35,418 nt of DNA, from the NCBI GenBank assembly GCA_947631525.1, contig CANRLQ010000001.1:1-35418 (forward strand), read 5' to 3'. A program made the translations under genes and the position numbers. Shown here piece by piece: positions 5,653 to 31,958 of this stretch; the first letter of the stretch is position 1; each line of letters begins with the position of its first letter. Source of the DNA: an uncultured Bacilli bacterium. GTDB taxonomy: Bacteria; Bacillota_I; Bacilli_A; RF39; UBA660. The notes beneath the pieces were generated by a model. That model searched no databases and was not told where the DNA came from. It saw only the letters and a program-made list of their open reading frames with translations.

Positions 5653-6636
5653 TTATGATAATCTAGTAAAACCTAATTTTATTAAAAAATCAACTAATTG
5701 TTCTTGACGACTTGCTCTTTCATCTAAAGGTGGCATATTATAAAATATTTTTACTCTAGATTCTGATTCAAAATCGTGAACATCTTTATTATTTAATAAA
5801 CTCTGATTTAAAATAACCTTTTTGTTTTTTAAATCATTTAATATTCTAGAATTTACTATCATTAATCTATTTAATTTAACCATTGAAGGTTCAATTAAAT
5901 AAATTACTTCAGTACATAATTCTTCAGCATTTTTACTATTATTAACATCTAATAGAATAATATCTTTATCAAGATTTTTATTAATAAGAGTTTTAATATT
6001 ACTATTAGTAACTGAAACTAACTCTCTATCATTAAAAAATCTAAAATCTGATTTTTCAACTTCCATAGCAACTACTGAATACTTAGTAGATAATTGTTTC
6101 TTCATCAAATACGTTAAAGTTGTAGCACCCGACTGTTTTGTAACATTTTTAATTCCTAATATTCTAGGTCCTGTTAAAGTTGGCTCACCTTCAATATATC
6201 TATCAACATAAACAGTTTCTGTTTTAACTTGCTGTGGCTGAACTGCATTTACAGGATTAATTATATGTAAATGAGCTACATCTCTATAACTATTAGGATT
6301 ATTATACAAATATAAAATACCATCAGCATTTGTAGTAAAATTATAAATACCCATCGATATTAAATTAGACATATATTGTGGTGATGTAGTATCAGATGAT
6401 TCATCTAATAACAAAATCACTTTTTCCATATCTAATGATAACGATAATTTCTGAATTGTATTAATATTTTTATAATCTTTTAGTGCTGTTATATCTAAAA
6501 TCATTCTTTGAAAAAAGAAATTTTTAAAATTTGCAACTAATTCATCAACATCAAACTGCCCATTCAACTCTTTTATTATTTCAATATCAAGGCTTTCAAG
6601 CATAGATTGATATTTGTTTGAAACAATTACATTCAC
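5653..6636 (-). CDS. TadZ/CpaE-like protein (N-terminal pseudo-receiver-like region plus degenerate ParA/MinD fold)
   Basis: 327 aa. RILGIKNVTKQSGATTLTYLMKKQL sits where ParA/MinD proteins carry KGGxGKTT, but the P-loop lysine is missing. DIILLDVNN is Walker-B-like. Its position at the end of the Tad gene set matches tadZ. Confidence 0.4.
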   Translation of the reverse strand: MNVIVSNKYQSMLESLDIEIIKELNGQFDVDELVANFKNFFFQRMILDITALKDYKNINTIQKLSLSLDMEKVILLLDESSDTTSPQYMSNLISMGIYNFTTNADGILYLYNNPNSYRDVAHLHIINPVNAVQPQQVKTETVYVDRYIEGEPTLTGPRILGIKNVTKQSGATTLTYLMKKQLSTKYSVVAMEVEKSDFRFFNDRELVSVTNSNIKTLINKNLDKDIILLDVNNSKNAEELCTEVIYLIEPSMVKLNRLMIVNSRILNDLKNKKVILNQSLLNNKDVHDFESESRVKIFYNMPPLDERASRQEQLVDFLIKLGFTRLS

Positions 6637-6653: not shown

Positions 6654-7109
6654 TTAAGCATTTCCATTAAAATAACCAAAACTTTTAGTTTCACCCTTTA
6701 CAGGAAATTCAACTGCAGACCCAATAACTGGAAATTCAAAATGCATATAAGTTATAACTTTGTAATAATTATCATTACCATAAGTATGTTTTATTACACA
6801 ATAATTATATCCTGCAGTGGTAGTAATATTTGCACCATAAACTATAGTTTCGTTTGCTTTACCATTTGTTACGCATTCCTTATTTCCTGCACCTGCTCCA
6901 ACTTGATAACCAACCTCTTTTAAATAACTATCTATTTCATCTTTTAAACTATCATTCCAACCATTATTTTCTTCAATAATATTTACAATTTTATTTTTAA
7001 CTTTATAAGCTTTAGAATAACTAATTGAACCAACAAAGAAAATCATTATAACACCAATGATTGACGCAATCATCCCCATAACTAACGAATTTCCTAATGC
7101 CTCTCTCAT
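6654..7109 (-). CDS. pseudopilin-like protein (TadE/TadF position), paralogue of 7122..7541
   Basis: 151 aa with N-terminus MREALG followed by the hydrophobic NSLVMGMIASIIGVIMIFFVG. It shares SYSKAYKVKNKI with the neighbour's SYYKAYKVNNAI and has two conserved Cys. Confidence 0.5.
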   Translation of the reverse strand: MREALGNSLVMGMIASIIGVIMIFFVGSISYSKAYKVKNKIVNIIEENNGWNDSLKDEIDSYLKEVGYQVGAGAGNKECVTNGKANETIVYGANITTTAGYNYCVIKHTYGNDNYYKVITYMHFEFPVIGSAVEFPVKGETKSFGYFNGNA

Positions 7110-7121
7110 ATTCTAATACCT

Positions 7122-7541
7122 CTATTCATTAAAATAATATATATTTTCTGTTGTAGATTTGATTGGAATTTTTAAAAACAAATCTCCAAGTGGAATATCT
7201 ATATTTAAATAAGTTGTTATCTTATATTTATAATAATTATTTTTTTCTTTTCGCGTATCTAACAATTCAACACAATAATCAAAATCTGTATCATTTTTTG
7301 TGTATTCATCATTAGAACATTCATGTTTACCTTTTCTATAACCTAAACTTTCTAATTTAGTACTTATTTCTTTTTTAGCTAAACTATTATATCCTTCATA
7401 TTTTTCAATACTACTAGATATAGCATTGTTAACTTTATAAGCTTTATAATAACTTAAAGTGGCAGCTAAAAAAGCAAATGTTACCACTATAAAAATTGTT
7501 ATTATATTTATCGTAGCTGTAAATCCTATACCTTGCTTCAT
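7122..7541 (-). CDS. pseudopilin-like protein (TadE/TadF position)
   Basis: 139 aa with N-terminus MKQGIG followed by FTATINIITIFIVVTFAFLAA. It lies directly downstream of the Flp-like gene. Confidence 0.5.
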   Translation of the reverse strand: MKQGIGFTATINIITIFIVVTFAFLAATLSYYKAYKVNNAISSSIEKYEGYNSLAKKEISTKLESLGYRKGKHECSNDEYTKNDTDFDYCVELLDTRKEKNNYYKYKITTYLNIDIPLGDLFLKIPIKSTTENIYYFNE

Positions 7542-7564
7542 TAACTACCTCCCTATTCACATTA

Positions 7565-7798
7565 TTATTTTTTGGCTCTTTCTTGATTTTTACAAGAAGC
7601 ATAGTCTAAAGTATTTGCATTATCTGCACTTACTTGACATTTTCCACCCTTCCAGTATCCACCGCAAGCACTACAAGCCGCACTATTCTCTGTACTAGCC
7701 ATCATACTATTTACAATAATAGTACCTATTCCTAAAACTATTGCAATCAAAACAATTGTGATTACTGTCATATTTGCTTCTCCAGCTGCTTCTTTCAT
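7565..7798 (-). CDS. Flp-like major pilin candidate
   Basis: 77 aa. MKEAAG is followed by the hydrophobic EANMTVITIVLIAIVLGIGTIIV and a short Cys-rich head with 4 Cys. It has its own consensus promoter and follows tadC. It lacks the canonical Flp EY motif. Confidence 0.55.
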   Translation of the reverse strand: MKEAAGEANMTVITIVLIAIVLGIGTIIVNSMMASTENSAACSACGGYWKGGKCQVSADNANTLDYASCKNQERAKK

Positions 7799-7938: not shown

Positions 7939-8727
7939 TTACATTCCCATCATACTCATCATTGCAATCATTAATAAGACTAATATTCCGCCACCAGTTG
8001 AGAATAACATCATCATTGTTTTATGTTCCATTGTTTCCAAACGATTTTTATATTTATCCTCACGCATTTTATTTTGTAATGTTGAAACACTCTTAGCAAA
8101 CATAACTAATTGTTCATGTTTATTTTCTTGAGCTCCTAAACTTAAACGATATAGAAGTCTCATCATACGCATAGAATCTCTAACAGGATACTCTTTAGCA
8201 AAATCCATATATGGTTCTACTGTAGAATCTCCAGCCTCAATACGTTCTATTAGTCTTGTAAGTCCAGATTTAAATATTTCTGGTGCTGTTTCAACACTTT
8301 TTGCTAATGCTACTGGAACAGTATAATGTTGAATTAAAATTTCCAAACTTTTTAGATAGTATGGTAACATTTGATTTATTTTATTTAAGTTACTTTTATA
8401 ATAAGCTTTTAAATTCATATATGGAATTTTAAAAACCAAATAACCTATTACTATAGAAAATATAACATTAATAAAGCTTAGATTAGAAAACATTAATATA
8501 ATTAAGAAACATCCAATTATAACTAGGGCATTTCTAATTCTTATTGAAAATAATTTATTAATATCTAAATCTTCACTACCATATTTAACATTAAGTAAAA
8601 ATGCATAATCATCTTCCATTAAAAATCTAAAATATGGTTCAATATCTCCTATAAATTTTTTTGAATCAATCATTCTATTGTAATTTAGTACAAATAATAT
8701 TATAGCTGCTATAAATATAAATTCCAT
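7939..8727 (-). CDS. tadC: TadC-like pilus platform membrane protein (GspF/T2SSF-like)
   Basis: 262 aa with TM helices at both ends. The central soluble region LPYYLKSLEILIQHYTVPVALAKSVETAPEIFKSGLTRLIERIEAGDS fits the T2SSF-type helical domain. The start is coupled to tadB by TAATG. Confidence 0.55.
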   Translation of the reverse strand: MEFIFIAAIILFVLNYNRMIDSKKFIGDIEPYFRFLMEDDYAFLLNVKYGSEDLDINKLFSIRIRNALVIIGCFLIILMFSNLSFINVIFSIVIGYLVFKIPYMNLKAYYKSNLNKINQMLPYYLKSLEILIQHYTVPVALAKSVETAPEIFKSGLTRLIERIEAGDSTVEPYMDFAKEYPVRDSMRMMRLLYRLSLGAQENKHEQLVMFAKSVSTLQNKMREDKYKNRLETMEHKTMMMLFSTGGGILVLLMIAMMSMMGM

Positions 8728-9629
8728 TATTCAGCCCCCACATTCTCATTATAATATTTTTCTCCATTAAGTAAGAACAATGTATTAATAATTATAATAG
8801 CGTGTAATAATAATTGAACAAATAAATTATCTAAAAGTGCTATATAAGATTCTACACCTAATAAAAATTGTACTAACATTACCATTAAATATAAAATTAT
8901 ACCAAATTGAAGAAATTTCTTATGGAAATTTGCTCTATCAATTCTATCACGATAAACTGCTTCAACAAGCATGTCTATATCCTGACTCATATTTTCTAAA
9001 GCATCTCCAGAATCTTTAGAACCTTCATTAGTAATTTGTAAGAATAATTGATGTGTATTTTTTACAATATAATAATCATATTTTTGATTAAAAAAGTTAA
9101 TTGACTCTTCTATTGTACCATTGTCATATGCTAAATCAATCATTAATTTAACATCACTTTTTACAGGATCTTCTAATACATCTGATTCATAAACACCTTC
9201 TAAGGCTTTAACAAACGCTTGGGTTGTCCCAAATTCCATTATAACATTGGTTGTATAAACTTGAATTTGTTCAAAGATAAATTCACTATATACTCTTTTA
9301 CATCTAAGATATGTAAGGTATGGAATTACTGCAACAGCAATTACTGCATATATAAATGAAACTATTAAACTATAAAAATATAAATAAGTTATAACAGCTG
9401 CACCAACTGCAAATACAACTATTTGTATAGTATATTGTCTTGTAGTATATTCTTGACCTAAATCTTTTACTTTTTCTCTTATTTCTTTAAAAGAATAAGG
9501 AGCATATTTATCATATATATTACCCGCTGTTTTTGAAATATATTTGTAAACACTTTCACCACTACTGTTTCGATAAGCAATTACAAATATAACAACAAAG
9601 GCAATTATTAAAAATACTATTAATTCCAA
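8727..9629 (-). CDS. tadB: TadB-like pilus platform membrane protein (GspF/T2SSF-like)
   Basis: 300 aa with an N-terminal TM, paired TMs, a soluble helical domain and C-terminal TMs. It lies immediately downstream of the ATPase. Confidence 0.55.
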   Translation of the reverse strand: MELIVFLIIAFVVIFVIAYRNSSGESVYKYISKTAGNIYDKYAPYSFKEIREKVKDLGQEYTTRQYTIQIVVFAVGAAVITYLYFYSLIVSFIYAVIAVAVIPYLTYLRCKRVYSEFIFEQIQVYTTNVIMEFGTTQAFVKALEGVYESDVLEDPVKSDVKLMIDLAYDNGTIEESINFFNQKYDYYIVKNTHQLFLQITNEGSKDSGDALENMSQDIDMLVEAVYRDRIDRANFHKKFLQFGIILYLMVMLVQFLLGVESYIALLDNLFVQLLLHAIIIINTLFLLNGEKYYNENVGAE

Positions 9630-9641
9630 TTTATTCCTCCT

Positions 9642-10637
9642 TTATTCTATATTTCCTACATTATTTTGCATGTTAGGATTATTTGTTTTGTTAATATAAT
9701 TTTGATTACTAATTTGACCATTTTGATTAATGCCATTTGGGTTAATACCGACATTTAATTTATTAGGTTGATTAGTTGACGTATTAATTCCTGTATTATT
9801 TAAATTATTAATATTACTTACTTGTTGCCCAACATTAATTTTTTGATTTGGATTTAAAGCTTTACTTTGATTTACTGTTTGTCCAGTATTTAAAGGTTGT
9901 CTATTGTTAACAATTTGTCCAACATTAACACCTTGAACACTTTGCAAACTTTGTGATGATTTTGTTTCACCTGATTTAATAACATCTTTAGGTAAAACTA
10001 CTCCTTGAGCATCCAAATAATCAATTAAATATTTTGATGGGCTTTTTCTAACCACATGTCCTGTTGTTGACTTTTTATAAATTGTATTTGTTCTTGCTTC
10101 GTTATCTTCAGTAACATAAAATTCTGTAACCTCAGCAATTTCACGTTTAAAACTTCTTGTTACTTTATCTTGATAAGCTCTGATATATACTCCAATTTGT
10201 ATATATCTATAAATTGATTTTAAAAATTGTTCTATATCTTGATTTGTTTCAAGTAAACTATACATACGGTTAGGTATAGATGATGCTTTATCAGCATGAA
10301 TTGTTGATAAAATATAATGTCCAGAAGATATAGAGTTACGTACTGCCATAACGGCCTCTGCACTACGAACTTCGGATAGTAATATCCATTTTGGATTTTG
10401 TCTCATACATGTTACTAAAACATCTGTATAAGAAGCTATATTATTTGTTTTCATAGCTACTATATCTCTATGTGGAAATATTCTATCTAAGTGAAGTTCC
10501 AAAGTATCTTCTATTGTAATTAATTTTTCATCTTCTCTTGTATGTGCTGCTAAATATTTAACAAACTCGGTTTTACCACTACCTGTTTCTCCACATACAA
10601 TTATGTTGCAATGTCCTAAAACACATTGAATCAACAT
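9642..10637 (-). CDS. tadA: TadA/CpaF/VirB11-family secretion ATPase, catalytic part, with a ~110-aa N/Q-rich tail
   Basis: Walker A is CGETGSGKT; other family motifs are ITIEDTLEL, ILLSEVRSAEA and STIHA. The frame is closed by a TAG at 10647..10649, four codons upstream of the ATG, so the N-domain lies in another frame. Confidence 0.8.
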   Translation of the reverse strand: MLIQCVLGHCNIIVCGETGSGKTEFVKYLAAHTREDEKLITIEDTLELHLDRIFPHRDIVAMKTNNIASYTDVLVTCMRQNPKWILLSEVRSAEAVMAVRNSISSGHYILSTIHADKASSIPNRMYSLLETNQDIEQFLKSIYRYIQIGVYIRAYQDKVTRSFKREIAEVTEFYVTEDNEARTNTIYKKSTTGHVVRKSPSKYLIDYLDAQGVVLPKDVIKSGETKSSQSLQSVQGVNVGQIVNNRQPLNTGQTVNQSKALNPNQKINVGQQVSNINNLNNTGINTSTNQPNKLNVGINPNGINQNGQISNQNYINKTNNPNMQNNVGNIE

Positions 10638-11001
10638 ATTGCTCTTCTAATAATTTCCCCTTTTCCAATCTTATTTTAGCAGGTGTTTTACGTATAACGG
10701 CAGCTATACCATTTTTAGCTATTGAATCATGAACGAAATTAAGACGAAGCTCTGCTCCTTCAGCATCCAAAAATGGTGAGGCCATATTAAACGATTTACC
10801 CATGCTATTGGCACATTGAAATGCTAACTTTTCCATAAATGCATTATTTACATTTGGATTTTCAACTCTAAAAAGTCCTTTTGATAAAGTTCTTAACCAA
10901 AGTTGGCCTCCATTGCTATATGAAATATCGGTAACATCATCACTTTGTAAATATTCTTTAAGTGGCCCAAAATCAATTTGGGCAAACATTGAATCAAACA
11001 T
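10579..11001 (-). CDS. tadA: TadA/CpaF/VirB11-family ATPase, N-terminal domain (separated from the catalytic part by a frameshift)
   Basis: VTDISYSNGGQLWL...LRLNFVHDSIAKNGIAAVIRK is the N-domain pattern of T2SSE/VirB11 ATPases. It ends in the out-of-frame tail CFRTLQHNCMWRNR and overlaps the catalytic ORF by 59 nt. Confidence 0.7.
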   Translation of the reverse strand: MFDSMFAQIDFGPLKEYLQSDDVTDISYSNGGQLWLRTLSKGLFRVENPNVNNAFMEKLAFQCANSMGKSFNMASPFLDAEGAELRLNFVHDSIAKNGIAAVIRKTPAKIRLEKGKLLEEQYVDSMCFRTLQHNCMWRNR

Positions 11002-11834
11002 TAATCTTCTTTATCTGTGTTAGTAGTTGTATCAGTTGTATTTGTGTTATCAATTTCATCATTAGCTACTGTATTAGCATTTATGAAATCTTTAAGTGTT
11101 TGAGAACTTACAGCTGTTTCTCCTTCTTCACTTGCAACTGTAGCACCATGTGGTACAGGGAATAATTCAACAGAATAAGAGCTCATATAACTTGCTTTTC
11201 TAAGTAAAATATTAATTTCAGGTACAACACCAAATATTAAATATGCTGGTGTTCTAGATTCTGCACTATTTTCAAATACATTTTTACCTGATGAATCTTT
11301 TACAGCTAAAATTTTAATATTTTCAACTAATTTACCAACCATAATTTTTCCACTTTTGTTTACGGCTTTCATGTAAATGTCAATGTAATTACCAGTATAC
11401 ATTGAGTTACCATAAGTAGTTGCTGTTGTAACTGGGAAGTTATATGGTACTTCACCTTCTTCAACTTCAACAAATGCTGAATCTGGTAATTCTTTTTCTT
11501 CAACAACTGTTTCATTGTAGAATAAACTTCCTGTTGGTATTACAGTATTATAATTACTATACTTACCAATTACCTTATTTGAATCTACATAAACTTCTCC
11601 TTTTTGAAGTACAATTGGTGCAACATCGATATAAGTTATCATATCAGGTGTTATCTTTGTTCTTGGTTGTATTGTTGTTGCTGCTACAGGTATATTTTTA
11701 ACAGGACTTACTTGTTTATTTATTTGATAACGATATCCTAAAAATAATACAAGAATAATTGCCAATACCCCTATGATTGTTACAGTATTTTTGTTTTTGA
11801 AAAAATTTTGTAACGTAATTTTTAAATTATTCAT
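11001..11834 (-). CDS. cpaB: CpaB/RcpC-like Flp pilus assembly protein
   Basis: 277 aa with an N-terminal TM. IPVAATTIQPRTKITPDMITYIDV is SAF-like. The C-terminal pattern IKILAVKD...PAYLIFGVVPEINILLRKASY matches CpaB. It is coupled to tadA by TAATG. Confidence 0.6.
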   Translation of the reverse strand: MNNLKITLQNFFKNKNTVTIIGVLAIILVLFLGYRYQINKQVSPVKNIPVAATTIQPRTKITPDMITYIDVAPIVLQKGEVYVDSNKVIGKYSNYNTVIPTGSLFYNETVVEEKELPDSAFVEVEEGEVPYNFPVTTATTYGNSMYTGNYIDIYMKAVNKSGKIMVGKLVENIKILAVKDSSGKNVFENSAESRTPAYLIFGVVPEINILLRKASYMSSYSVELFPVPHGATVASEEGETAVSSQTLKDFINANTVANDEIDNTNTTDTTTNTDKED

Positions 11835-11884
11835 TTTTTTCTCTCCTTTTCTATATATCTAACTTTGATTAACAAAGTTTAGAA

Positions 11885-12286
11885 CTAATATGGTGTTTCT
11901 AATATTGCATCTATTTTGTTGTCAATTGTAAAGTCAACAACTTCATTTGCAACAGTAGAAGTTTGTTTTGATCTCACCCTTAGACTTACTTTAGGTGGAT
12001 ATTCACTAATATCATAAATATCTATAACATATGTATTTGATAAAGATGCATTTTCTGCAAATCTTCTAACAAATATCTCTGCAAATTTTTCTCCATCTAT
12101 ACTAATATTCCCTGTTTTTGCATATTCAGCTTGATCAATAGCATCATACATTGCTGCTTCAGTTGTTTCTCTAAGCAATGTATAATTTTGCTGATCTGTA
12201 TTAGTAATATTTTGGAAGAAATATATAAAAACTATAGATGTAACTCCGAGCATTAAAATCATGCTCCCCCAAAATGATTCTTTCAT
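11885..12286 (-). CDS. 133-aa prepilin-like / N-terminally anchored protein, cassette A
   Basis: MKESFWG is followed by SMILMLGVTSIVFIYFF. By eye it is about two-thirds identical to 18564..18965. It follows the giant protein gene with an 18-nt gap. Confidence 0.6.
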   Translation of the reverse strand: MKESFWGSMILMLGVTSIVFIYFFQNITNTDQQNYTLLRETTEAAMYDAIDQAEYAKTGNISIDGEKFAEIFVRRFAENASLSNTYVIDIYDISEYPPKVSLRVRSKQTSTVANEVVDFTIDNKIDAILETPY

Positions 12287-12304
12287 TTATATTTCCTCCT
12301 TTAC

Positions 12305-15300
12305 TTATTTCCCATTAGGATATGTAGCTAAAGTTGATGATGAAGAATATTTTTCATAACAACTTCTAAGAGTTGAAGTAGTATCTGTGCTTGAACAATT
12401 TCCTCCAACTAATATACCTTTATATTGTCCACGTAAGAAATTACTACTAACGCAAGTGTTGTCATCACATGTATAATCACTTTTTGTTGGTGTATATGAA
12501 TGTTCTTTATTATAATTTCTTATGCTTTTAATATCTTCTGGAGTTAAATTAATTGTGTATAATATATTTCCATCATCTTTATATAAATTATCAGCTTCTA
12601 CAGTTCCATTATTTGACAATCTTGTATGAATTTTATTTTGAACCCACCATAAATTTCGCCAATTATAACCTGGAAAACGACCTATATTCGTAGTATCATA
12701 TGAAGTTACTTTACCTGAATAAGTCATACCTGGAAATGGATCTTTTAAATCTATAACTCTATATACTATTTTTTTACCTCCATATGGGCAAGTTTGTTCT
12801 TCACAAACAGCTAACGCTTCAGCAATTTGTGATTCATTTGCTGTTGAAGTAGTAAGTCCTTTCTTAGCTAATTCTAATTCTAAACAATATTCTGGATTAC
12901 CCATATCTTCACACTCACCTTCTGGTGGACATCCAGGACATCTATATCTAGTTTCACATATTTCACCATTAGCACATACTTTTTTCCATATAACAGCTTT
13001 TGTTCCCTCTGGTTGTATTGATTTCCAACTACAACTATCTGTATTACATACACTATTACACATTTTATTGTAACAATATTCAAAATCATCAGAAGCATAA
13101 TTTTGATATTTATCTATTTCTTTGCTAAGATTTTTAGATTTTTCTTCAGCTTGTTTTAAAGTTACTGTATTTCCTCTAACATTTAAATTAATTTTTCCTT
13201 TTTCTTGTTCTACTTCGTCATTAATTCTTTGAATTAATTTATTTACTTCATCTTTTAATTTATCATAATCGTTAAGACTTATTCGTGCTTCCTCATTTCT
13301 AACTGTAACATATTCAAGTGATGAAACTTTAATTTGTTTTTTACTTTCAAATTCAGAAACAGATTTTTTTAATTTTTCTAATTTTTGCTTATTTTTTTCA
13401 TTTCTTTCGCTTTGATAACTAGTTTTACATATGCTGCTTTCTATTCTATCTGTAATATTTTCTAATGTTAAATTATTATGAGTTCTATCTTCTATACAAT
13501 CTTCATATTCTTTTATTTCAGTTTCTAATTTTGTTATTTCTTTTATTGCATCGTTATAAGACATTGTTTCATAATCAACTTGTATTTCTCTTTTTGATTT
13601 CAGTTTTTCGATATCTTTTTCTAATTTTTCAATATCTTTATTTAATGTTTCAATAACATTTTTAGCTTGATTAATTGATGAAATAACAATACGATGAACA
13701 TAATCTGTCTGGATGGTATAACGAAATTCATTTGATGAGTTAGTATTTCTTATTGCTTGATCATAGTCATTTTTTAAATTTTGTGTAGAACTTAATAAAT
13801 TTCTACTATTAAAGCAATCTGTTAAATCAACTGTTTGATGATTATATTCACATGTACAATGTTTATAATTTTCATTTTCATATTGTTTTTTATATTCTTC
13901 AAATTCTTCACTTGATAAATAACATAATTTAGTTTGAGCATCTAAGCAAGCAAGATTTGAATTACCACCATTATTGCCAGGCTCCCCACTACATAATAAT
14001 AGCACATCAAGATTTTCTCCTGCCATAGGTGAAGAACTTGGACAAATACAATTATCTTCTCCTCCTACTTCATAAGAACAAGTATAATCAGTTATCTTAC
14101 TTCCAACATTATTATCTATACCTAAATTTAAATTTAATTTCAAATAATATTTACCACTAGCATTTTTAGAAATTGCTAATGAACCTTCTTTTCTATTTTG
14201 AATTAAAGGAAGAACTGCATTAGCATCGTTATTTGTAGAAAAGAATCTACCAGTTTGATCAATCCAAGAATTCAAATTTGCTGGTAATTTAAACCAAGAT
14301 GTTTGTGACATAGAAATTGATGAAGTACCTACTGAGATATTATTTTGTTTCGTAGAACTTAAAACTATTGGACTATTTCCATATTGTTCATCAGTATAAT
14401 TAACTGTAGCACCATTTTGATAGCTACTGTAATAGTCATTAACTAAATTTGTATTTGAAACACTTCCACAAGTAGCCGTAGTTCCCACTGGATCTGGATT
14501 AACAATTGTACAGCTAGTATTGATTGTTATCTTCATTCTATAAGAAGATAATTTATCGTTCCAATTACTAGTTGGCCATTCAAATGAAGTACCAGGTTTC
14601 ATTTGTTTTTTTACATTACCTGGTAATATCAGAGTAAAAGTATCTTTACAATAAACATTACATCCACCAGTTGTTGTACTAACAAATCGTCCATAATAAT
14701 TTGAACGTTGGCCTAAACTTTCATCACAAGAATTATTATCTGTTTTTACAGTATAAACAGACTCAAGAACCATTTTTTTATTATAGTCATCTGTACACTT
14801 TAAATTATTTGTTTTAGTTTGAATTGAATTAGACATACAGCAAGAATTACAATAAACATTTGTATATTGACTTACTATTCCATCTAATCTTCCACTTAAT
14901 GTTGCATTTGTTGGAGATGTTAATGAATTATCATACCAAAACTTAATATAATTTTTTATATCATAATTTTGTACTTTACCAACACAGTCAACAGGTTGAC
15001 ATGAATATTGAAAACAATTGTTTTCATATCGACATAAATCTTCAGCTTGTGCATCACTATATTTTTTATCCGTATATTTTTTTATACAATCTGTAATCTT
15101 AACTTGCCCTCCAGTTATAGGATTAGTACAATACCTATTTGCTGTACAATATAAATCTTTACAAGTAGATTTTGCATTTGCCTCACTTTGACCTGCATCA
15201 ACATAATTTTCAACACAAGTAGTTATATCCATTCCCTTATTTATTGCTGAATCATCAGGACATAAAATTTTATCAGGTGGTGGTATAGCAGCTGATATAT

Positions 15301-16021
15301 CTATAATATTCATACCACATCCCACATCATAATCTTTAGATGTCTCTAAATTATTTTCATTACTACAAAATTCCTTAGTTTTATATTTAATTCCAACATC
15401 TGTAAAATTAGTATAAAAAGCCGCTAACATATCTGAATATCTACTCCTACGTTGTTCTCCACCTTTAACCCTAATTTTTGTAACATTTTTTATTGTGTCA
15501 TAATAAATCGTACCTGAATTACCATTCATAACATATGTAACAACAGGTTCAATAACAATACGATATCCTTTTTTAGCATGTGGTGATTCCTTTTTAGCTG
15601 GTTCACTCTTTTTATAACTAGATTCTCCAGTTTTTTTGAACCATTTTTTGGCATTTTTCCAATCATTCTTTTTAAACCATTCTTTTATTTTCTTGCTTGC
15701 TTCTGCATATTCGGTATTACCAACACCTTTAAGTACCCCACTACTTTTATCTAATATATTTTTATCACCCCAGTTTTTATTAGACCAATATTCACTATAA
15801 TATTTTTTATAACTAGCACCATTTATCCAATATAGTGTAACCTTAACAGTTAAGTGATTGGCATTATTGTACATACAAGGGCCAGAAACACTAGAACAAC
15901 TAGCTCCACTTCCACTTACAACGTCACTACCTTCACCATTATATATCGATGCTGAAACATTAGTATTGCCTATAAAAGCTAATAAAATAAATACAAATAC
16001 AAATTTACATATTTTTTTCAT
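12305..16021 (-). CDS. giant secreted cysteine-rich protein A (1238 aa), function unknown, adhesin or pilus-associated candidate
   Basis: Sec signal MKKICKFVFVFILLAFIGNTNVSA. I hand-counted about 51 Cys. It shares blocks with 18980..22333, for example YYGRFVSTTTGGCNVYCKDTFTLILPGNV, YTCSYEV and IVYRVIDLKDPFPG...RFPGYNW. Confidence 0.8.
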   Translation of the reverse strand: MKKICKFVFVFILLAFIGNTNVSASIYNGEGSDVVSGSGASCSSVSGPCMYNNANHLTVKVTLYWINGASYKKYYSEYWSNKNWGDKNILDKSSGVLKGVGNTEYAEASKKIKEWFKKNDWKNAKKWFKKTGESSYKKSEPAKKESPHAKKGYRIVIEPVVTYVMNGNSGTIYYDTIKNVTKIRVKGGEQRRSRYSDMLAAFYTNFTDVGIKYKTKEFCSNENNLETSKDYDVGCGMNIIDISAAIPPPDKILCPDDSAINKGMDITTCVENYVDAGQSEANAKSTCKDLYCTANRYCTNPITGGQVKITDCIKKYTDKKYSDAQAEDLCRYENNCFQYSCQPVDCVGKVQNYDIKNYIKFWYDNSLTSPTNATLSGRLDGIVSQYTNVYCNSCCMSNSIQTKTNNLKCTDDYNKKMVLESVYTVKTDNNSCDESLGQRSNYYGRFVSTTTGGCNVYCKDTFTLILPGNVKKQMKPGTSFEWPTSNWNDKLSSYRMKITINTSCTIVNPDPVGTTATCGSVSNTNLVNDYYSSYQNGATVNYTDEQYGNSPIVLSSTKQNNISVGTSSISMSQTSWFKLPANLNSWIDQTGRFFSTNNDANAVLPLIQNRKEGSLAISKNASGKYYLKLNLNLGIDNNVGSKITDYTCSYEVGGEDNCICPSSSPMAGENLDVLLLCSGEPGNNGGNSNLACLDAQTKLCYLSSEEFEEYKKQYENENYKHCTCEYNHQTVDLTDCFNSRNLLSSTQNLKNDYDQAIRNTNSSNEFRYTIQTDYVHRIVISSINQAKNVIETLNKDIEKLEKDIEKLKSKREIQVDYETMSYNDAIKEITKLETEIKEYEDCIEDRTHNNLTLENITDRIESSICKTSYQSERNEKNKQKLEKLKKSVSEFESKKQIKVSSLEYVTVRNEEARISLNDYDKLKDEVNKLIQRINDEVEQEKGKINLNVRGNTVTLKQAEEKSKNLSKEIDKYQNYASDDFEYCYNKMCNSVCNTDSCSWKSIQPEGTKAVIWKKVCANGEICETRYRCPGCPPEGECEDMGNPEYCLELELAKKGLTTSTANESQIAEALAVCEEQTCPYGGKKIVYRVIDLKDPFPGMTYSGKVTSYDTTNIGRFPGYNWRNLWWVQNKIHTRLSNNGTVEADNLYKDDGNILYTINLTPEDIKSIRNYNKEHSYTPTKSDYTCDDNTCVSSNFLRGQYKGILVGGNCSSTDTTSTLRSCYEKYSSSSTLATYPNGK

Positions 16022-16035
16022 GTATAAATCACATC

Positions 16036-16689
16036 CTATTTTAATTCATTTTTCTTATCATCTCTATATATAATTATACCACATACTACTATTATTAATG
16101 GTAAGATTATATAATAATATCTTTTATAACTATTTGTAATAATTTCAACCAATCTAGCCAATCCCTGTTTTTCAGCAACTGCTTCTTTTTCTTGTCTATT
16201 CTTTTCTAGTAAGTATTCATTTACTTTCTTTTTAAATTCAGCATCGGTAATGTTTAAATTTATCCATTTTCGACAATATTTATATTCTTGAATATCTTTA
16301 CATAATTCACTTTTATAGTATTTATTATAACTAGGTGTTTTAACATAAATAGTTCTTAACGAATCACTTATACAAACAAAACCTTTTGAATAAACTTCAT
16401 ATCGATACTCTTTGTTAGGTTTTAATCCTTTAACAGTAACATCTTTGTTTGAAGAATATATCTTACCATTTGAAGTATCTTTTATTAACAATTTTCCATT
16501 TAAATTAGTAAAAGTTATATCAAATGTAACATTATTATTAATTTCATTATAAGTATAACTATAAGCTACATTAGCAGATAATTTCTGAATTTCAGATATT
16601 TGTGAATCTAAACAATTTGCTGCTTTAATTTGATATGGAAAAAGTACTAATATAATTAATAGGAAAGAATTAACAAATATTCTTCTCAC
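16036..16689 (-). CDS. secreted FN3-like protein with a C-terminal TM anchor, cassette A
   Basis: I prefer the GTG start at 16689 (RBS GGAGGTG, and the -10 at 16722 leaves no room for the track ATG). It has a signal peptide and a TM anchor YYYIILPLIIVVCGIIIY. VTVKGLKPNKEYRYEVYS is an FN3-type strand signature. It is a paralogue of 23092..23739. Confidence 0.6.
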   Translation of the reverse strand: MRRIFVNSFLLIILVLFPYQIKAANCLDSQISEIQKLSANVAYSYTYNEINNNVTFDITFTNLNGKLLIKDTSNGKIYSSNKDVTVKGLKPNKEYRYEVYSKGFVCISDSLRTIYVKTPSYNKYYKSELCKDIQEYKYCRKWINLNITDAEFKKKVNEYLLEKNRQEKEAVAEKQGLARLVEIITNSYKRYYYIILPLIIVVCGIIIYRDDKKNELK

Positions 16690-18563: not shown

Positions 18564-18965
18564 TTAATAAGGAAGTTCTAAAATAGCATCTATTTTGTTA
18601 TCAATAGTAACTTCTACTATTTCATTAGCCGCATTAGTTGATTTTGTCGCTCTAACTTGCAAACTAACTTTAGGTGGATATTCACTAATATCATATATAT
18701 CAATATAGTAATCGTTAGATAAAGAAGCAACTTCTGAATATCTTCTAACAAAACTCTCAATAAATTTTTCTCTATTAATTTTAACATTTCCTGTATTTGT
18801 ATAATTAACTTTATCTATTGAATCATACATAGCTGCTTCAGTTATTTCTTTTATCAATGTATAATTTTGTTGATCAACATTTGTAACATTTTGAAAGAAA
18901 AATACAAACAATATGGAAATAATTCCTAGTATCAATATCATCGATCCCCAAAATGATTCTTTCAT
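18564..18965 (-). CDS. 133-aa prepilin-like / N-terminally anchored protein, cassette B
   Basis: MKESFWG is followed by SMILILGIISILFVFFF. It shares DIYDISEYPPKVSL and TIDNKIDAILE with 11885..12286. Confidence 0.6.
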   Translation of the reverse strand: MKESFWGSMILILGIISILFVFFFQNVTNVDQQNYTLIKEITEAAMYDSIDKVNYTNTGNVKINREKFIESFVRRYSEVASLSNDYYIDIYDISEYPPKVSLQVRATKSTNAANEIVEVTIDNKIDAILELPY

Positions 18966-21900: not shown

Positions 21901-22333
21901 TAATTAAACATGTCCCACCACCATTTACAGAAGCAAAAGAACCTGCACTACAATTTATATTAGTTTTACTTACACCAACACAAGTAGTTCCACTAAGTAC
22001 ATAAGCAGTTGATGGACAAAAATATTCTTTATCATACATAGTTACTGGTGGATTATTAAATTCTTCATCAACACAACTAGTTATATTTAATTCCGATTTT
22101 GTTTGTGTATCAGTACAAAATATTTGTGAAGTTTGTTCACATTCTTCAGAAGAGTCTCCTAACCATATTAGACCTACACCATAACCTTTACTGCTATCAA
22201 TCAAATTATCTAAAGAAGCAACCCCACTAACTGAACTTAAAGAAAATGAAGAAAATTGTGTTTTTTTAGAATCGTAATACATATAATGTGAAATAGCATC
22301 TACATTTAATTCAAAGTCACTTTCTTTCATCAA
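18980..22333 (-). CDS. giant cysteine-rich protein B, main body (the frame stays open upstream to 22432; its N-terminus is in ORF 22402..23082)
   Basis: 1117 aa from the track, with no signal peptide. I hand-counted about 71 Cys. It contains 13 C-x-x-G-aromatic...C repeats plus the shared blocks YNGRHVKTIGNCDIYCLETVNLSFPGNV, YTCNYEV and IVFRTIDLDNPFPG...RYPGSNW. Confidence 0.75.
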   Translation of the reverse strand: MMKESDFELNVDAISHYMYYDSKKTQFSSFSLSSVSGVASLDNLIDSSKGYGVGLIWLGDSSEECEQTSQIFCTDTQTKSELNITSCVDEEFNNPPVTMYDKEYFCPSTAYVLSGTTCVGVSKTNINCSAGSFASVNGGGTCLITNNLVSCNSGGQYLGTACRYSSTATCPSGTSWNSNNTWCRVQPTCNGDGFSWNSSAKTCRKTKNATQTCSCASGWNKSGNSCYQTTSSTTYHSVSAGVYANCAAAGYNGGSVSRKLCHNSGDNSNNRCCSHTTYSTSWDATKLSCTYSCSSGWQKSGTTCYKDNASKRKCPSGYEYNSDTGYCRVKPNCPQGYTFVSGTRTCILDRTDQFVCPPGYAVGKNGAYPYCYAYDNTKLYCAAGYHMTDNNTKCTINDTTADWNPSCKGGYFLVNQNYTNKCTGAFMAKNGQCCSKEPSFDDAKNICIADTCTESKSCVYGMNDEAVASDPNNKTNISDCYKDNIKKGIEPQLALDMCKVDNCYAPCATIDDYGKYHRRTDKDYQDCIKNKLNASTDDDVVDINEASLECKQRYCPISCFDVKLSNKSLTNSLVCVNTDKNNEASYNEESVKVEDNTCEEGSSKYNGRHVKTIGNCDIYCLETVNLSFPGNVSKIIPRGNYFEWPTVNGTYPLQINIKEKCKIIIREGSTADGDCRSYKFTPSDFFNNNQNPSVQIEAGSTVNEEKSKHWYKGSLDIAKDLTNFTDGWNGFTTADRNVSVNRVITYKLNENVNRYYNRISGEILTYPNINTFDRGKGVISTSTDDFPTIYELKLKVFNLGTSNIIGDIVNQGNYTCNYEVAPYITTTDVCKCPSGTKNYDKILPFSCSDKSCADLQATYCDSDITIPVCENTCIGDCKWENEAVATDRLNIKYKYCDGNLTFCDVNFFCPNDKILTGDPKICVINKLRNYGYMPDNNLAKNINSIDRANLYKVLRECEPAICSTNYNSSIVFRTIDLDNPFPGMLQTNGKTNKFSNTSLYGRYPGSNWDSQYVKEKILNSRNSKGSKIYSKNPLYTIKLTSKDIKTIRKYNEKNSYDNFDLKCLNSSDSSACISKLLHGELTDYKINILSKNLNNKNGNCNGLSSTSKEKDFYNCYN
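21026..22018 (-). repeat. coding array of about 13 cysteine-bounded C-x-x-G-[YWF] modules (EGF / ephrin-receptor-like in look)
   Basis: Examples are CPSGTSWNSNNTWC, CNGDGFSWNSSAKTC, CASGWNKSGNSC, CSSGWQKSGTTC, CPSGYEYNSDTGYC, CPQGYTFVSGTRTC, CPPGYAVGKNGAYPYC, CAAGYHMTDNNTKC and CKGGYFLVNQNYTNKC. The array is absent from paralogue A. Confidence 0.7.
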
Positions 22334-22401
22334 ATAAGCTAATTCAGTTGGTGTACCAAAATAATATTTTTTTTCGGAATTAGAACTACTATTATATCCG
22401 A

Positions 22402-23082
22402 TTAAATTAATGGTTCTACTAATATATAATAATCATTTATACAATAATTAGATAAATCTCTATTAAAAGTTTGTTTTACATATAATTTTATACTGGTTTG
22501 ATTATAATTACCTTCTTTATCATAAACTATAGAATCAAAATATTTTATAACACTACTCCAATCTATAGAATTATTTTTATAATTTAAAGTAATACCTGTA
22601 GGTAATTTAGAAATATTATTATATGAATCTAATGCACTAACACCTTTTTCTTTATAACCATTAAAAATATTACTAGTATCTAATGTTAATTTTGATTTTT
22701 GACCAGATATATTATAATATACATTTTGAGTTTTTGATTTTTCATAATAATAATCCTGGCTATATCCAAATTGATTACCAAATGCTGAAACTAAACTTAC
22801 TCTAAATCCTAAAGCATTAACACTTTGTATCCACTCATTCGTTTTACTTGAATCCATATTAGTTACTGGGGAATTTGAAGTACCAATATTTAATTTATAT
22901 GGATCATTACTTTTTTCTGTCGATTCACTATCTTTTACATCATCTGATCTATTTGTTTCAGTCTTTTCTTCTCTATATAAAATTGAATCAATTTTATAAT
23001 TAGTACTTATATTGAAACTATATAAAGATATGACAAGAATAAAACAAAAATACAAAGTTAAGATTGTTAATAGTTTCTTCAT
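22402..23082 (-). CDS. N-terminal fragment of giant protein B (signal peptide or anchor plus first domain)
   Basis: The N-terminus is MKKLLTILTLYFCFILVISLYSF. The C-terminal DYYILVEPLI aligns with GYRIVIEPVV of protein A (aa ~152-161). The next frame continues LIGYNSSSNSEKKYYFGTPTEL, matching MNGNSGTIYYDTIKNV in A. Confidence 0.65.
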   Translation of the reverse strand: MKKLLTILTLYFCFILVISLYSFNISTNYKIDSILYREEKTETNRSDDVKDSESTEKSNDPYKLNIGTSNSPVTNMDSSKTNEWIQSVNALGFRVSLVSAFGNQFGYSQDYYYEKSKTQNVYYNISGQKSKLTLDTSNIFNGYKEKGVSALDSYNNISKLPTGITLNYKNNSIDWSSVIKYFDSIVYDKEGNYNQTSIKLYVKQTFNRDLSNYCINDYYILVEPLI

Positions 23083-29325: not shown

Positions 29326-30789
29326 ATGAAAATAGAAAAAAGTATTGAAAAAAATATTAACATCATTAAAAGTGCCTATGGTAATAGTAATGATTTAGTA
29401 AACAGAAATATAAATATTGGAAGAAAAAAAATTGCTTATGTCTACTTAGAAAGTGTAAGTAGTGATGATAAAATAAGTGATTTTTTAATGAAAAATATAA
29501 GTAGTTTAGTAAAAGAAAATAGTCTAAATCCTTTTAAAGACTTATTTAAAAATTTAAAAAATACTATTTATAATAGTAATTTATCAACTACTAATAATTT
29601 TGATGAATTATATTATAAATTATCATCAGGATTTACTTGTATACTAGTTGAAGGTTTTGATGAAGTAATTACTATTGAAACTAGGTCTATATTAGATAGA
29701 GGAGTCACTGAATCAGCTACCGAATCAGTATTAAGAGGTCCAAAAGATAGCTTTACGGAAAATCATGAAAAAAATTTAGGTTTAATTAGAAAAAGAATTA
29801 AAGATCAAAATCTATGGTTTAAGGATTTAAAAATAGGAAGAAGAACCAAAACAAAAGTTACAATTAGTTATATTCAAGATATAGCTTTAAAAGAAAATAT
29901 TGAAAAAATTGAAAAAGATTTAAAAAAAATAGATATTGATGGAGTATTAGATAGTGGTTATATAAGAGAATTCTTAACTACTAATACAAAATCAGCTTTC
30001 CCACAAATGATAAGTACTGAAAGACCTGACTTAGTATGTGGTTCTCTTTTAGAAGGAAAAATTGTAATTCTTGTAGAAAATAGTCCTTGCGCACTAATAT
30101 TACCAGGATTATTAATTGATTTTTTACATACAGCAGAAGATTATTATCAAAAACCAATTAATATAAGCTTAACAAGAATACTTAGACTTTTAAGTTTTGT
30201 TCTTACAATAATTACACCTGGATTTTATATTGCTGTCACGACGTGGAATCAAGAGGTAATACCAAACGAATTATTAATATCACTATCAATTCAAAAAAAT
30301 GGTGTTCCTTTTCCAACAACCTTAGAACTAATGTTGATGATAGCCATTTTTGAAATATTACGTGAAGCTGATATAAGAATGCCTAATACAACTGGTGCAT
30401 CTATAAGCATCGTTGGAGCCTTAATTTTAGGTGAAGCTGCTGTAAGTGCAGGAGTCGTTTCACCTATTGTTATAATAGTTGTTGCTTTTACATCTATATC
30501 AGGTCTTTTATATACAGATGTAGATTTTATCAATGGAATTAGATGGTGGAGATTAATATTTATTATATTCTCAACTTTGCTCGGTTTTATTGGTTTAATT
30601 ATAGCTTTACTCATATTTATAGTAAGAATATGTAGTATTGAATTTTTAAATACACCTTATACCGTACCATCAAGTCCTATTTTCCCTAAAATACTTGGAG
30701 ATTCATTTATACGAATATCTAGAACTAAACAAAAAGTTAGGGCACCTTATTTAACACATAATAAAAAGAGAATGGAGGAACATAAATGA
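29326..30789 (+). CDS. spore germination protein, GerA (A subunit) family
   Basis: 487 aa with a soluble N-terminal region followed by 4-5 C-terminal TMs. It is the first gene of an A-C-B operon. RBS GAGGGA. Confidence 0.8.
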   Translation: MKIEKSIEKNINIIKSAYGNSNDLVNRNINIGRKKIAYVYLESVSSDDKISDFLMKNISSLVKENSLNPFKDLFKNLKNTIYNSNLSTTNNFDELYYKLSSGFTCILVEGFDEVITIETRSILDRGVTESATESVLRGPKDSFTENHEKNLGLIRKRIKDQNLWFKDLKIGRRTKTKVTISYIQDIALKENIEKIEKDLKKIDIDGVLDSGYIREFLTTNTKSAFPQMISTERPDLVCGSLLEGKIVILVENSPCALILPGLLIDFLHTAEDYYQKPINISLTRILRLLSFVLTIITPGFYIAVTTWNQEVIPNELLISLSIQKNGVPFPTTLELMLMIAIFEILREADIRMPNTTGASISIVGALILGEAAVSAGVVSPIVIIVVAFTSISGLLYTDVDFINGIRWWRLIFIIFSTLLGFIGLIIALLIFIVRICSIEFLNTPYTVPSSPIFPKILGDSFIRISRTKQKVRAPYLTHNKKRMEEHK

Positions 30790-31958
30790 AAAAATTAATA
30801 CTTATAATTCCTATTATTCTCTTATTTTCTGGATGTACTAATTATAAGGAACTAAATAATATTGCTATTGTAACAGGTATAGCAATTGATGTAGAGGATG
30901 ATAAATATGAAGTAAGTATCTTAATATCGAATTCACAAAAACCTGATGAAAGTTCTAAAGAAGGAGATGCTGGAACTATTTTATATAGTGGTAAAGGGAA
31001 AAATATATCTATGGCTTTAAAAAAAATAGACAATATTATCCCAAAACAAATTTATCTTGGGCATTTAGCAGTCGTAGTAGTATCAGAAGATGTTTCTAAA
31101 AAAGGCCTAGATAAAGTTAGTGATTATCTTTTTAGGAGTCCTGAAACAACTAAACAATTTTATATTATAATGACACGTGAAAATGAAAAAGCTAAAGATG
31201 TTTTAAAAATTTTATCACCATTAGAATCATTTCCATCACAAAATATAAAAAATAATATCGATAATGCGAATAATAGTAGTGCTATATCGGATAATCTAAA
31301 TTACAGTCGTTTTGTGGAAATTTATTTAAAAAAAGGAGCTGAACCATATCTACCAACTATAAAAATATATGGTAATGAGAAAAAAGGAAGTAGCAGCAAA
31401 GCTCTTGAATCAGTTGATTTAAAAGCCTATGTTAGTCTTAAAGGATTAGCTTTATTTAAGGGTTCAAAATTTGTTGATTTTGCTAGTGATGATGAAAGTA
31501 GAGGTATTAATGTAGTAAATGGAAATACAACAAAAATGATAATAGAAACGAAATGTGGTGATGGATATATAATAACAGCTATTTCTAATTTAAAAACAAA
31601 AAAGAAAATTAAATTTGAAAATAATGAACCTGTTGTTTATTTAGATGTTAGTGCAAAAGGTGATATCCAAGAAATAACATGTGATGTAAATTTAAATAAG
31701 CAAGGAAATATTGAAAAAATAGGTAAAAAAACAGAAAACAAATTGAAATCATTATTAAATCAAGGTATCCAAAAAGCTAAAGATAATAATACAGATGTCT
31801 TTGGTTTTGGAAATTTAGTGTATAAAAAAAATCCTAAATATTTTAATTCAATCAATGATTGGAATGAAAAATTTAGTAATATAAAAATCAAATCAAAAAT
31901 AACAGTTTATATGAAATCAAAAGGTTCAATAAAACAATCATTAAAGGCGGCTAGATAA
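30786..31958 (+). CDS. germinant receptor C subunit lipoprotein, Ger(x)C family
   Basis: The lipobox is LLFSGC. TNYKELNNIAIVTGIAIDVEDDKYEVSILISN is typical of GerxC N-termini. An ATGA overlap joins it to the A subunit. Confidence 0.8.
   Translation: MKKLILIIPIILLFSGCTNYKELNNIAIVTGIAIDVEDDKYEVSILISNSQKPDESSKEGDAGTILYSGKGKNISMALKKIDNIIPKQIYLGHLAVVVVSEDVSKKGLDKVSDYLFRSPETTKQFYIIMTRENEKAKDVLKILSPLESFPSQNIKNNIDNANNSSAISDNLNYSRFVEIYLKKGAEPYLPTIKIYGNEKKGSSSKALESVDLKAYVSLKGLALFKGSKFVDFASDDESRGINVVNGNTTKMIIETKCGDGYIITAISNLKTKKKIKFENNEPVVYLDVSAKGDIQEITCDVNLNKQGNIEKIGKKTENKLKSLLNQGIQKAKDNNTDVFGFGNLVYKKNPKYFNSINDWNEKFSNIKIKSKITVYMKSKGSIKQSLKAAR

Follow-up and report, generated by a model that had tools for sequence, protein, structure and literature searches.

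A putative non-canonical prepilin module at the N-termini of three protein families in a Tad/VirB11-like operon of an uncultured Bacilli bacterium

The window analyzed here is a stretch of 35,418 nucleotides, positions 1 to 35,418 of contig CANRLQ010000001.1 (contig C1 below), from an uncultured Bacilli bacterium. It encodes five small proteins that begin with a short charged head ending in Gly and continue into a long hydrophobic helix. These are a Flp-sized protein of 77 residues (7565-7798), two pilin-like proteins of 139 (7122-7541) and 151 (6654-7109) residues, and two copies of a 133-residue DUF5411 protein, copy A (11885-12286) and copy B (18564-18965), all on the minus strand. The sequences suggest that this N-terminal module is related to the class III (prepilin) signal without being a canonical form of it. 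The genes of the three families that carry it belong to a Tad/VirB11-like operon, to which a Gram-positive type IV secretion module is joined. The reading favored here, to which we assign a probability of roughly one half, is that the five proteins are pilin-like subunits of a divergent Tad/VirB11-like machine, the Flp-like and most of the pilin-like proteins being cut by a PilD-type prepilin peptidase encoded elsewhere in the genome and the DUF5411 proteins probably remaining uncut. The Flp-like and pilin-like proteins are plausible candidates for cleavage, DUF5411 a doubtful one.

The N-terminal module

The five N-termini had been quoted in an earlier note on this DNA, and all are exact on re-reading the open reading frames (ORFs). 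The Flp-sized protein starts with MKEAAG, followed by EANMTVITIVLIAIV (N-terminal sequence MKEAAGEANMTVITIV), and has a Cys-containing tail. The 139-residue protein starts with MKQGIG, followed by FTATINII (MKQGIGFTATINII), and its 151-residue neighbor and paralog with MREALG, followed by NSLVMGMI (MREALGNSLVMGMI). Both DUF5411 copies start with MKESFWG, which leads into SMILMLGV in copy A (MKESFWGSMILMLGV) and SMILILGI in copy B (MKESFWGSMILILGI). Met1 is the real start, because each of the five ATG codons has a Shine-Dalgarno-like purine run upstream, as well as an in-frame stop codon one to six codons upstream.

The module common to the families can be written as M-[KR]-[ED]-[AS]-x-(x)-small residue, after which come about 22 hydrophobic residues. 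The polar head, or leader, has six residues, seven in the 133-residue proteins, and its K or R is balanced by E or D, giving a net charge of 0. The stretch of uncharged residues after the Gly is 23-29 residues long. The residue at position -2 relative to the putative cleavage site is T, I, F or W, and that at +5 is T, I or M, or S/T/L across the three families. A Sec-type signal peptide was considered and rejected: the hydrophobic stretch of 23-29 residues is too long for it and is followed by no conserved AxA-type site.

The source genome is a metagenome-assembled genome of 0.89 Mb in 99 contigs, with about 25% G+C and an estimated completeness of 85%. A crude whole-genome set of about 938 ORFs served to determine how frequent the pattern is. 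An uncharged hydrophobic stretch beginning at residues 6-9 is present in 78 of them. Only six ORFs combine M-[KR]-x(3-4)-G with such a stretch; five are the proteins described here, and the sixth, on contig C10, resembles a canonical-type minor pilin. With 6 of about 938 ORFs fitting and five of these in one cluster, the pattern is not a matter of chance. The claim that five proteins share an N-terminus thus describes a real pattern, but only three independent families stand behind it: the Flp-sized protein, the pilin-like pair of paralogs and the DUF5411 pair.

The fit to a class III signal, also proposed in the earlier note, is partial. Each protein starts with a short head that contains K or R, and a small residue, usually Gly, precedes a hydrophobic segment of about 20 residues that is the N-terminal half of a long helix. 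Several paralogous proteins share the head within one operon that also encodes a secretion ATPase, and the genome encodes an A24 peptidase. On the other hand, the leaders carry no net charge, and the proteins match none of PF07963, PF04964 and PF07811, even at E<=10. The absence of both Glu+5 and the EY motif, which the same note had pointed out, is borne out by the sequences.

Conservation in the three families

The order of genes, from a tadC-like gene through one or two Flp-like and one or two pilin-like genes to the gene in the TadZ position, is preserved in 16 of the 20 related loci that were fetched. The records of the relatives are labeled as uncultured Bacilli, Tenericutes or Mollicutes from gut and rumen. 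In all three families the N-terminal motif persists from genus to genus and among 50%-identity cluster representatives, and hundreds of uncultured gut Bacilli share the conserved module.

The Flp-sized family is the most uniform at its N-terminus. In 120 homologs, 56-82% identical overall and collected by a word-based search that favors shared N-terminal words, residues 1-22 are almost invariant and the tail is far less conserved, as in pilins. The consensus start in 16 syntenic loci is MK[EA]A[TA]GE[LA]N[ML]TV, where Gly6 is present in 23 of 24 proteins and Glu7 in all 24. In a larger set, which includes some spurious ORFs, the Gly is found in 54 of 59. The protein of the window reads E-A-N-M-T-V after the Gly, so that an invariant Glu occupies position +1. 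The Gly at -1, near-invariant in this family, is not invariant in DUF5411.

The 139- and 151-residue proteins are 32% identical in the aligned region, and both have the sequence SY.KAYKV.N after the helix. Their family comprises 779 cluster representatives at E<=1e-3, with the consensus start M-[KR]-[ED]-[AS]-[IVT]-G. In the logo of the representatives, the first four positions are M (100%), K/R (90%), E/D (85%) and A/S (98%), and position 6 is G in 82%, S in 8%, A in 8% and N in 2%. Another 80 genomes supplied 110 proteins, 86% of which have Gly6; A and S together account for about 14-16% at this position. All but 2% of the family thus have G, A or S directly ahead of the helix, which is consistent with a small residue at -1 of a cleavage site. 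The 139-residue protein has no match in Pfam or NCBIfam.

The two DUF5411 copies are 70% identical to each other. They match PF17424 over residues 1-132 with 164.6 bits (copy A, E 1.5e-48) and 156.1 bits (copy B, E 6.2e-46), against a cut-off of 30 bits. The family's consensus start is MKESFWG, and Ser4 and Trp6, which are invariant (78/78), fall inside the supposed leader. In two relatives DUF5411 constitutes the N-terminal 133 residues of 577- and 783-residue proteins. In one of these loci (L019:8435-10168) it is fused to Tissue_fac/FN3-like and ALK_LTK Gly-rich domains, and in another (L032:9140-11491) to a Big_2 domain region. Because the fused regions are large and extracellular, the C-terminus of DUF5411 faces the outside, and in these relatives DUF5411 behaves as a carrier module placed N-terminally to extracellular domains. 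The suggestion that the 133-residue proteins are minor pilins or adaptors agrees with such fusions. A VirB8- or PilN/O-like identity of DUF5411 was also considered, for which the Protein Data Bank (PDB) gave only insignificant fold matches.

AlphaFold2 models were calculated from deep alignments. The model of the 151-residue protein has a predicted local distance difference test score (pLDDT) of 89 and consists of a helix (residues 2-47), a second helix (55-66) and a four-stranded sheet. That of DUF5411 copy A (pLDDT 82) has a helix at residues 2-48, two short helices and a three-stranded sheet. In general, both larger families are thus predicted to have a lollipop-type, pilin-like shape, with a long helix of about 46 residues and a β-sheet, to which no solved structure was matched. 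An hhalign comparison of the pilin-like family with DUF5411 limits their similarity to the first 18 residues (E 8e-5). It pairs the M-K/R-E-A/S residues of the two families and leaves the two Gly positions unaligned.

A divergent variant is found in Anaerorhabdus (Erysipelotrichaceae). The leaders are MKEILQEYGG before FILS, MAGVVKSGG before IFMF and MKGVIQIYG before MLII. They differ from those above, yet Gly directly precedes the helix in all three proteins. The operon of these genomes (G311 and G444, loci L038 and L039) is shorter and very divergent; it contains genes for a 49-residue Flp-like protein, DUF5411, a CpaB-like protein, the ATPase, two platform-position proteins, a 118-residue pilin-like protein and large exported proteins. 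No type IV secretion system (T4SS) genes lie within the 20 kb that were fetched. A homolog search with the Anaerorhabdus DUF5411 found only itself, and a locus search with a closer DUF5411 alignment returned only the same family, with 414 hits at species level.

Prepilin peptidase and canonical pilins

To our knowledge, the leader is cut by an A24 peptidase at a recognizable site in all characterized type IV filaments (pili, type II secretion pseudopili, Com, Tad and archaella). The earlier note had found no TadV/PilD-like gene in the window and had proposed a search of the rest of the genome. Its observation holds, because the sole A24 match of the genome lies on another contig, C4. The gene (C4:21214-21978; PF01478 E 1.9e-13) encodes a PilD-type peptidase of 254 residues with an N-terminal Cys-motif domain, and it follows a PilC-like gene. 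With this peptidase present, the objection that the genome might have no prepilin peptidase at all falls away. Neither a short TadV/CpaA-type nor an archaeal-type peptidase was found anywhere in this genome.

The canonical pilins of this genome have leaders of 5-8 residues with two K/R residues (+2). A pattern search finds nine proteins that read K/R-G followed by FTLxE, or a close variant, and none of them is in the window. The eight proteins that score above the N_methyl (PF07963) cut-off include ones of 352 and 542 residues (contigs C17 and C23). Three relatives with genomes of 0.7-0.9 Mb (G002, G010 and G023) have 16-21 canonical N_methyl proteins, many of them in open frames of 500-1280 residues. 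Such use of class III signals on large proteins is unusually heavy for small genomes.

In an order-wide survey of 151 genomes, DUF5411 is present in 122 and the A24 peptidase in 149. The A24 gene is nearly always single-copy, in an open frame of 250-290 residues. Three DUF5411-positive genomes, G023, G097 and G366, showed no A24 gene. The first two were rejected as counter-examples: they still encode 16 and 6 N_methyl pilins, respectively, so an assembly gap probably hides the peptidase. G366 (99% complete) contains the cluster but has no PilB, no A24/PilD and no N_methyl pilins. Its cluster lies on a 26.9-kb contig, C76, which carries a second AsnS gene; this is 63% identical to that of the window's family, compared to 58% for the AsnS of G366 itself or its congener. 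Since this second AsnS is closer to the window's family, and since the other two genomes of the family of G366 lack the cluster, C76 is regarded as misbinned (loci L036 and L040), and G366 was rejected as a case of a cluster without a peptidase. The contig contains the whole Tad-like/T4SS cluster, which extends to VirB4-like and VirD4-like genes; chromosomal housekeeping genes lie further on. Among the genomes searched there is no reliable one that has the cluster and lacks the peptidase. An unlinked peptidase has a precedent in bifidobacteria, where tadV lies outside the tad locus (PMC7979991).

Processing and assembly of the subunits

According to the favored reading, the Flp-sized protein would be the candidate major subunit and the 139- and 151-residue paralogs candidate minor subunits, while the two DUF5411 copies would be pilin-shaped carriers or adaptors beside the giant Cys-rich proteins of the same gene block. 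The hydrophobic residues of the module would form the first half of the helix of about 46 residues. The six-residue leader of the Flp-like and most pilin-like proteins would be removed after Gly6 by the housekeeping PilD, which presumably serves the canonical pilins and the window proteins alike. Cleavage is favored for these proteins because an uncut head would bury K2, E3 and E7 in the filament core. After cleavage the only charge kept by the Flp-like helix would be the buried Glu+1, which could pair with the amino terminus of a neighboring subunit; in type IV pili it is Glu5 that pairs with the neighboring amino terminus. DUF5411 more probably keeps its N-terminus, as Ser4 and Trp6 are invariant and the Gly can be replaced by Met or Ile, and would carry the giant proteins from a membrane-anchored or tip-proximal position.

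A number of observations weigh against this reading. Several of them concern the families to which the proteins can be assigned. The 77-residue protein has no Flp (PF04964) match at E<=10 and no N_methyl match, and none of the genome's N_methyl proteins is on contig C1. TadE/TadF profiles (PF07811, PF13400) do not match the window proteins, and sub-threshold PF13400 matches occur in 5 of 130 members of the pilin-like family (best E 0.0062). When the PDB was searched with Foldseek, neither AlphaFold model had a match below E 0.05, and comparison of profiles with PDB sequences found no match for either larger family. The two polytopic membrane proteins of the operon have no T2SSF (PF00482) match in Pfam and no hhalign similarity to the genome's own PilC.

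The other observations concern the site and the enzyme. The Gly7 of DUF5411 is conserved in 69-82% of the sequences, with A, S, M, I or T as alternatives, and in some pilin-like orthologs Glu or Asn replaces the Gly (MKTVSESTW versus MREVSGSTW). The leader residues K/R2, E/D3 and A/S4 are at least as conserved as the Gly, which is odd for a peptide that is to be discarded. No PilD homolog or other A24 gene was found within 10 kb of DUF5411 in 100 loci, and in a closed relative of 1.26 Mb the single peptidase gene is about 550 kb away from the cluster. Even where the cluster is missing, the peptidase is retained for the canonical pilins of the genome, and the co-occurrence of cluster and peptidase therefore says nothing about its use.

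The main alternative is that the five proteins are uncut signal-anchors. The M-[KR]-[ED]-[AS] tag would then be a cytoplasmic docking or sorting signal, for instance for the ATPase or for the protein in the TadZ position, and the Gly would reflect a preference at the helix start or membrane interface. This is a serious possibility, although on balance we lean against it. The tag is fixed in length and highly conserved in the three families, position 4 being A, S or G in about 100%, and the invariant Ser4 and Trp6 of DUF5411 belong to this part of the protein. The hhalign alignment superimposes the tag and not the Gly, which can give way to M, I, N or E; the peptidase gene is unlinked and the canonical prepilin signature is absent. 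An analog is the conserved N-terminal peptide of PilN, which binds PilM. However, a type-IV-like filament made of the uncut Flp-like protein would have to bury the three charges mentioned above, and the practical invariance of G6 and E7 in that family, the match of the A/S/G substitutions to the pattern of a cleavage site, and the Anaerorhabdus variant, which retains the Gly but not the tag, all speak for cleavage. A still bolder proposal, in which these proteins form a separate class of type IV filament subunits whose tag is left uncut by any prepilin peptidase and is itself the assembly or sorting signal, seems rather unlikely.

It is improbable that the leaders are cut not by PilD but by a dedicated and so far unrecognized protease of the operon, perhaps an unannotated polytopic protein. 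The operon does encode several conserved membrane proteins without family assignment, and the motif differs from that of the PilD substrates of the same genome. No operon protein, however, has a protease-like domain or an A24-like match, the whole-genome A24 search gives only the PilD on contig C4, and the two polytopic proteins resemble a TadB/TadC-type pair of paralogs. It could also be that ordinary N-terminal anchors resemble one another by coincidence, since the genome is AT-rich, about 253 of its roughly 938 ORFs start with MK or MR, Gly is common at membrane interfaces and the five proteins collapse to three families. This is most improbable, given that only 6 of the 78 N-terminally anchored ORFs fit, five of them in this cluster, and that the motif is kept across cluster representatives and genera in every family.

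Organization of the gene block

Positions 1-25417 of the window form a single minus-strand block that is transcribed from right to left in window coordinates. It begins with two cassettes, each consisting of a gene for a giant Cys-rich protein followed by one for a 133-residue protein. DUF5411 copy B is placed after giant protein B, and copy A is located directly after giant protein A, ahead of the CpaB/RcpC-like gene. Giant protein B seems to have been split from an N-terminal ORF (22402-23082) that bears a signal peptide, the break being in the region 22333-22432.

The CpaB/RcpC-like protein (11001-11834, minus strand, 277 residues) has a weak PF16976 match (E 0.0045) that is under the cut-off, but its position is conserved. 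It is followed by the TadA/VirB11-type secretion ATPase (9642-11001, minus strand), which matches T2SSE (PF00437, E 1.5e-24); its VirB11/TadA matches in NCBIfam, including TIGR03819, are below their cut-offs. The ATPase, the only secretion ATPase of the cluster, is encoded in two overlapping frames, 10579-11001 and 9642-10637, the split being in the region 10579-10646, just ahead of the Walker A region, and a single-frame translation contains stops. In relatives it is a single intact ORF of 362-469 residues. The machine may be inactive in this particular genome, because the ATPase is frameshifted.

The TadB and TadC positions (7939-9629, minus strand) are taken by two polytopic membrane proteins of 300 and 262 residues, which are distant paralogs of each other (hhalign E 6e-5) and are syntenic in 16 of 20 relatives. 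Next come the genes for the 77-, 139- and 151-residue proteins. The pilin-like gene block is closed by the 327-residue protein in the TadZ position (5653-6636, minus strand), which has no Pfam match and is kept in 16 relatives at 35-53% identity. The block ends with two-transmembrane proteins (VirB2-like according to a first reading), a TrbL/VirB6-like protein and a TraC/VirB4-like fragment. Outside the block, three plus-strand ORFs at 29326-33041 resemble, as judged by eye, a GerA/GerC/GerB spore-germination receptor operon, which is notable in a genome of about 1 Mb.

A search of 72,556 plasmids by tblastn with the 151-residue protein and DUF5411 gave no match. The best plasmid match is that of the ATPase, to pLS20-family Bacillus plasmids (32% identity). 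One of these, the conjugative Bacillus amyloliquefaciens plasmid pBamB1895 (L124, record 11388-16100), contains a syntenic unannotated module with a bitopic 133-residue protein, a CpaF/VirB11 ATPase, two polytopic proteins and a bitopic 120-residue protein. The module also has three tandem copies of a transmembrane protein of about 47 residues (MLDQNTDRMYWVIGAVLVVG). None of the pBamB1895 module proteins begins with MKEAxG.

Implications

Within a large family of uncultured gut Bacilli with small genomes, most members retain the cluster, which has no peptidase gene of its own. If the housekeeping PilD cuts these proteins, the known substrate range of prepilin peptidases would become wider, and motif-based finders such as PilFind and N_methyl would be missing a whole pilus family of the gut microbiota. 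If the proteins stay uncut, they would represent a new way to build or anchor type IV-like filaments. Should the uncut tag also be functional, this would be a peptidase-independent class of pilins, with a Tad-like motor coupled to a Gram-positive T4SS in hundreds of gut species. Either outcome bears on how bacteria with reduced genomes display giant Cys-rich surface proteins.

Comparison with known systems

The closest parallel is with the Tad (type IVc) pili of Aggregatibacter, Caulobacter and, as a monoderm example, Bifidobacterium breve, which have the same order of genes: an ATPase, two platform positions, a Flp-sized gene and two larger pilin-like genes. The ATPase of the window is of the TadA/CpaF (T2SSE) type, and in Flp, TadE and TadF a hydrophobic helix likewise comes after a short leader whose last residue is Gly. 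The peptidase of Tad systems, too, may be encoded away from the locus, as in bifidobacteria (PMC7979991). The differences are equally clear. Tad Flp proteins have a G/xxxxEY motif, whereas the window proteins lack this motif, Glu+5 and any Flp or TadE match in Pfam. Their leaders, unlike those of Tad proteins, are conserved in sequence and have a net charge of 0. The proteins in the platform and TadZ positions cannot be recognized by Pfam, and further genes of the operon are VirB6/TrbL-like and VirB4/TraC-like. Imam et al. (PMC3244431) described Flp-like proteins that lack Tyr+6 in tad loci of Gram-positive bacteria, as well as tad-like loci with no recognizable prepilin motif, and stressed that processing needs to be proved by experiment.

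The canonical type IV/Com pilins of the same genome resemble the window proteins in having a Gly before a hydrophobic helix of about 20 residues and a leader of 5-8 residues. They differ in their F-T-L-x-E sequence, their PF07963 match and a leader charge of +2 instead of 0. Another comparison is with archaeal class III signals, those of the substrates of PibD, FlaK and EppA: a small residue (G, A or S) is tolerated at -1 and Glu+5 is not known to be required. The polar residue Gln is conserved at +1 in EppA substrates, much as Glu+1 is invariant in the Flp-like protein. At -2 the archaeal sites usually carry K or R, unlike the T, I, F or W found here.

The DUF5411 fusions are comparable to modular type IV pilins, such as those of Streptococcus sanguinis, in which a functional domain is grafted onto a pilin module. 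DUF5411, however, has neither the canonical class III motif nor a fold that matches any solved pilin. Operons with DUF5411 and CpaF have been predicted in Roseburia, Ruminococcus and Eubacterium (Miller et al. 2022, PMC9523054). As in the window, DUF5411 is accompanied there by a CpaF-type ATPase and by a large protein that resembles an adhesin or invasin, although the N-termini and their processing are not analyzed in that paper. Those operons are from Clostridia, whereas the present one comes from a family of Bacilli with small genomes and is joined to genes of a T4SS. The system is known only from this computational mention and is otherwise uncharacterized. Taken together, the sequence comparisons suggest that the module at the N-termini varies the prepilin theme and lies outside any defined pilin family.

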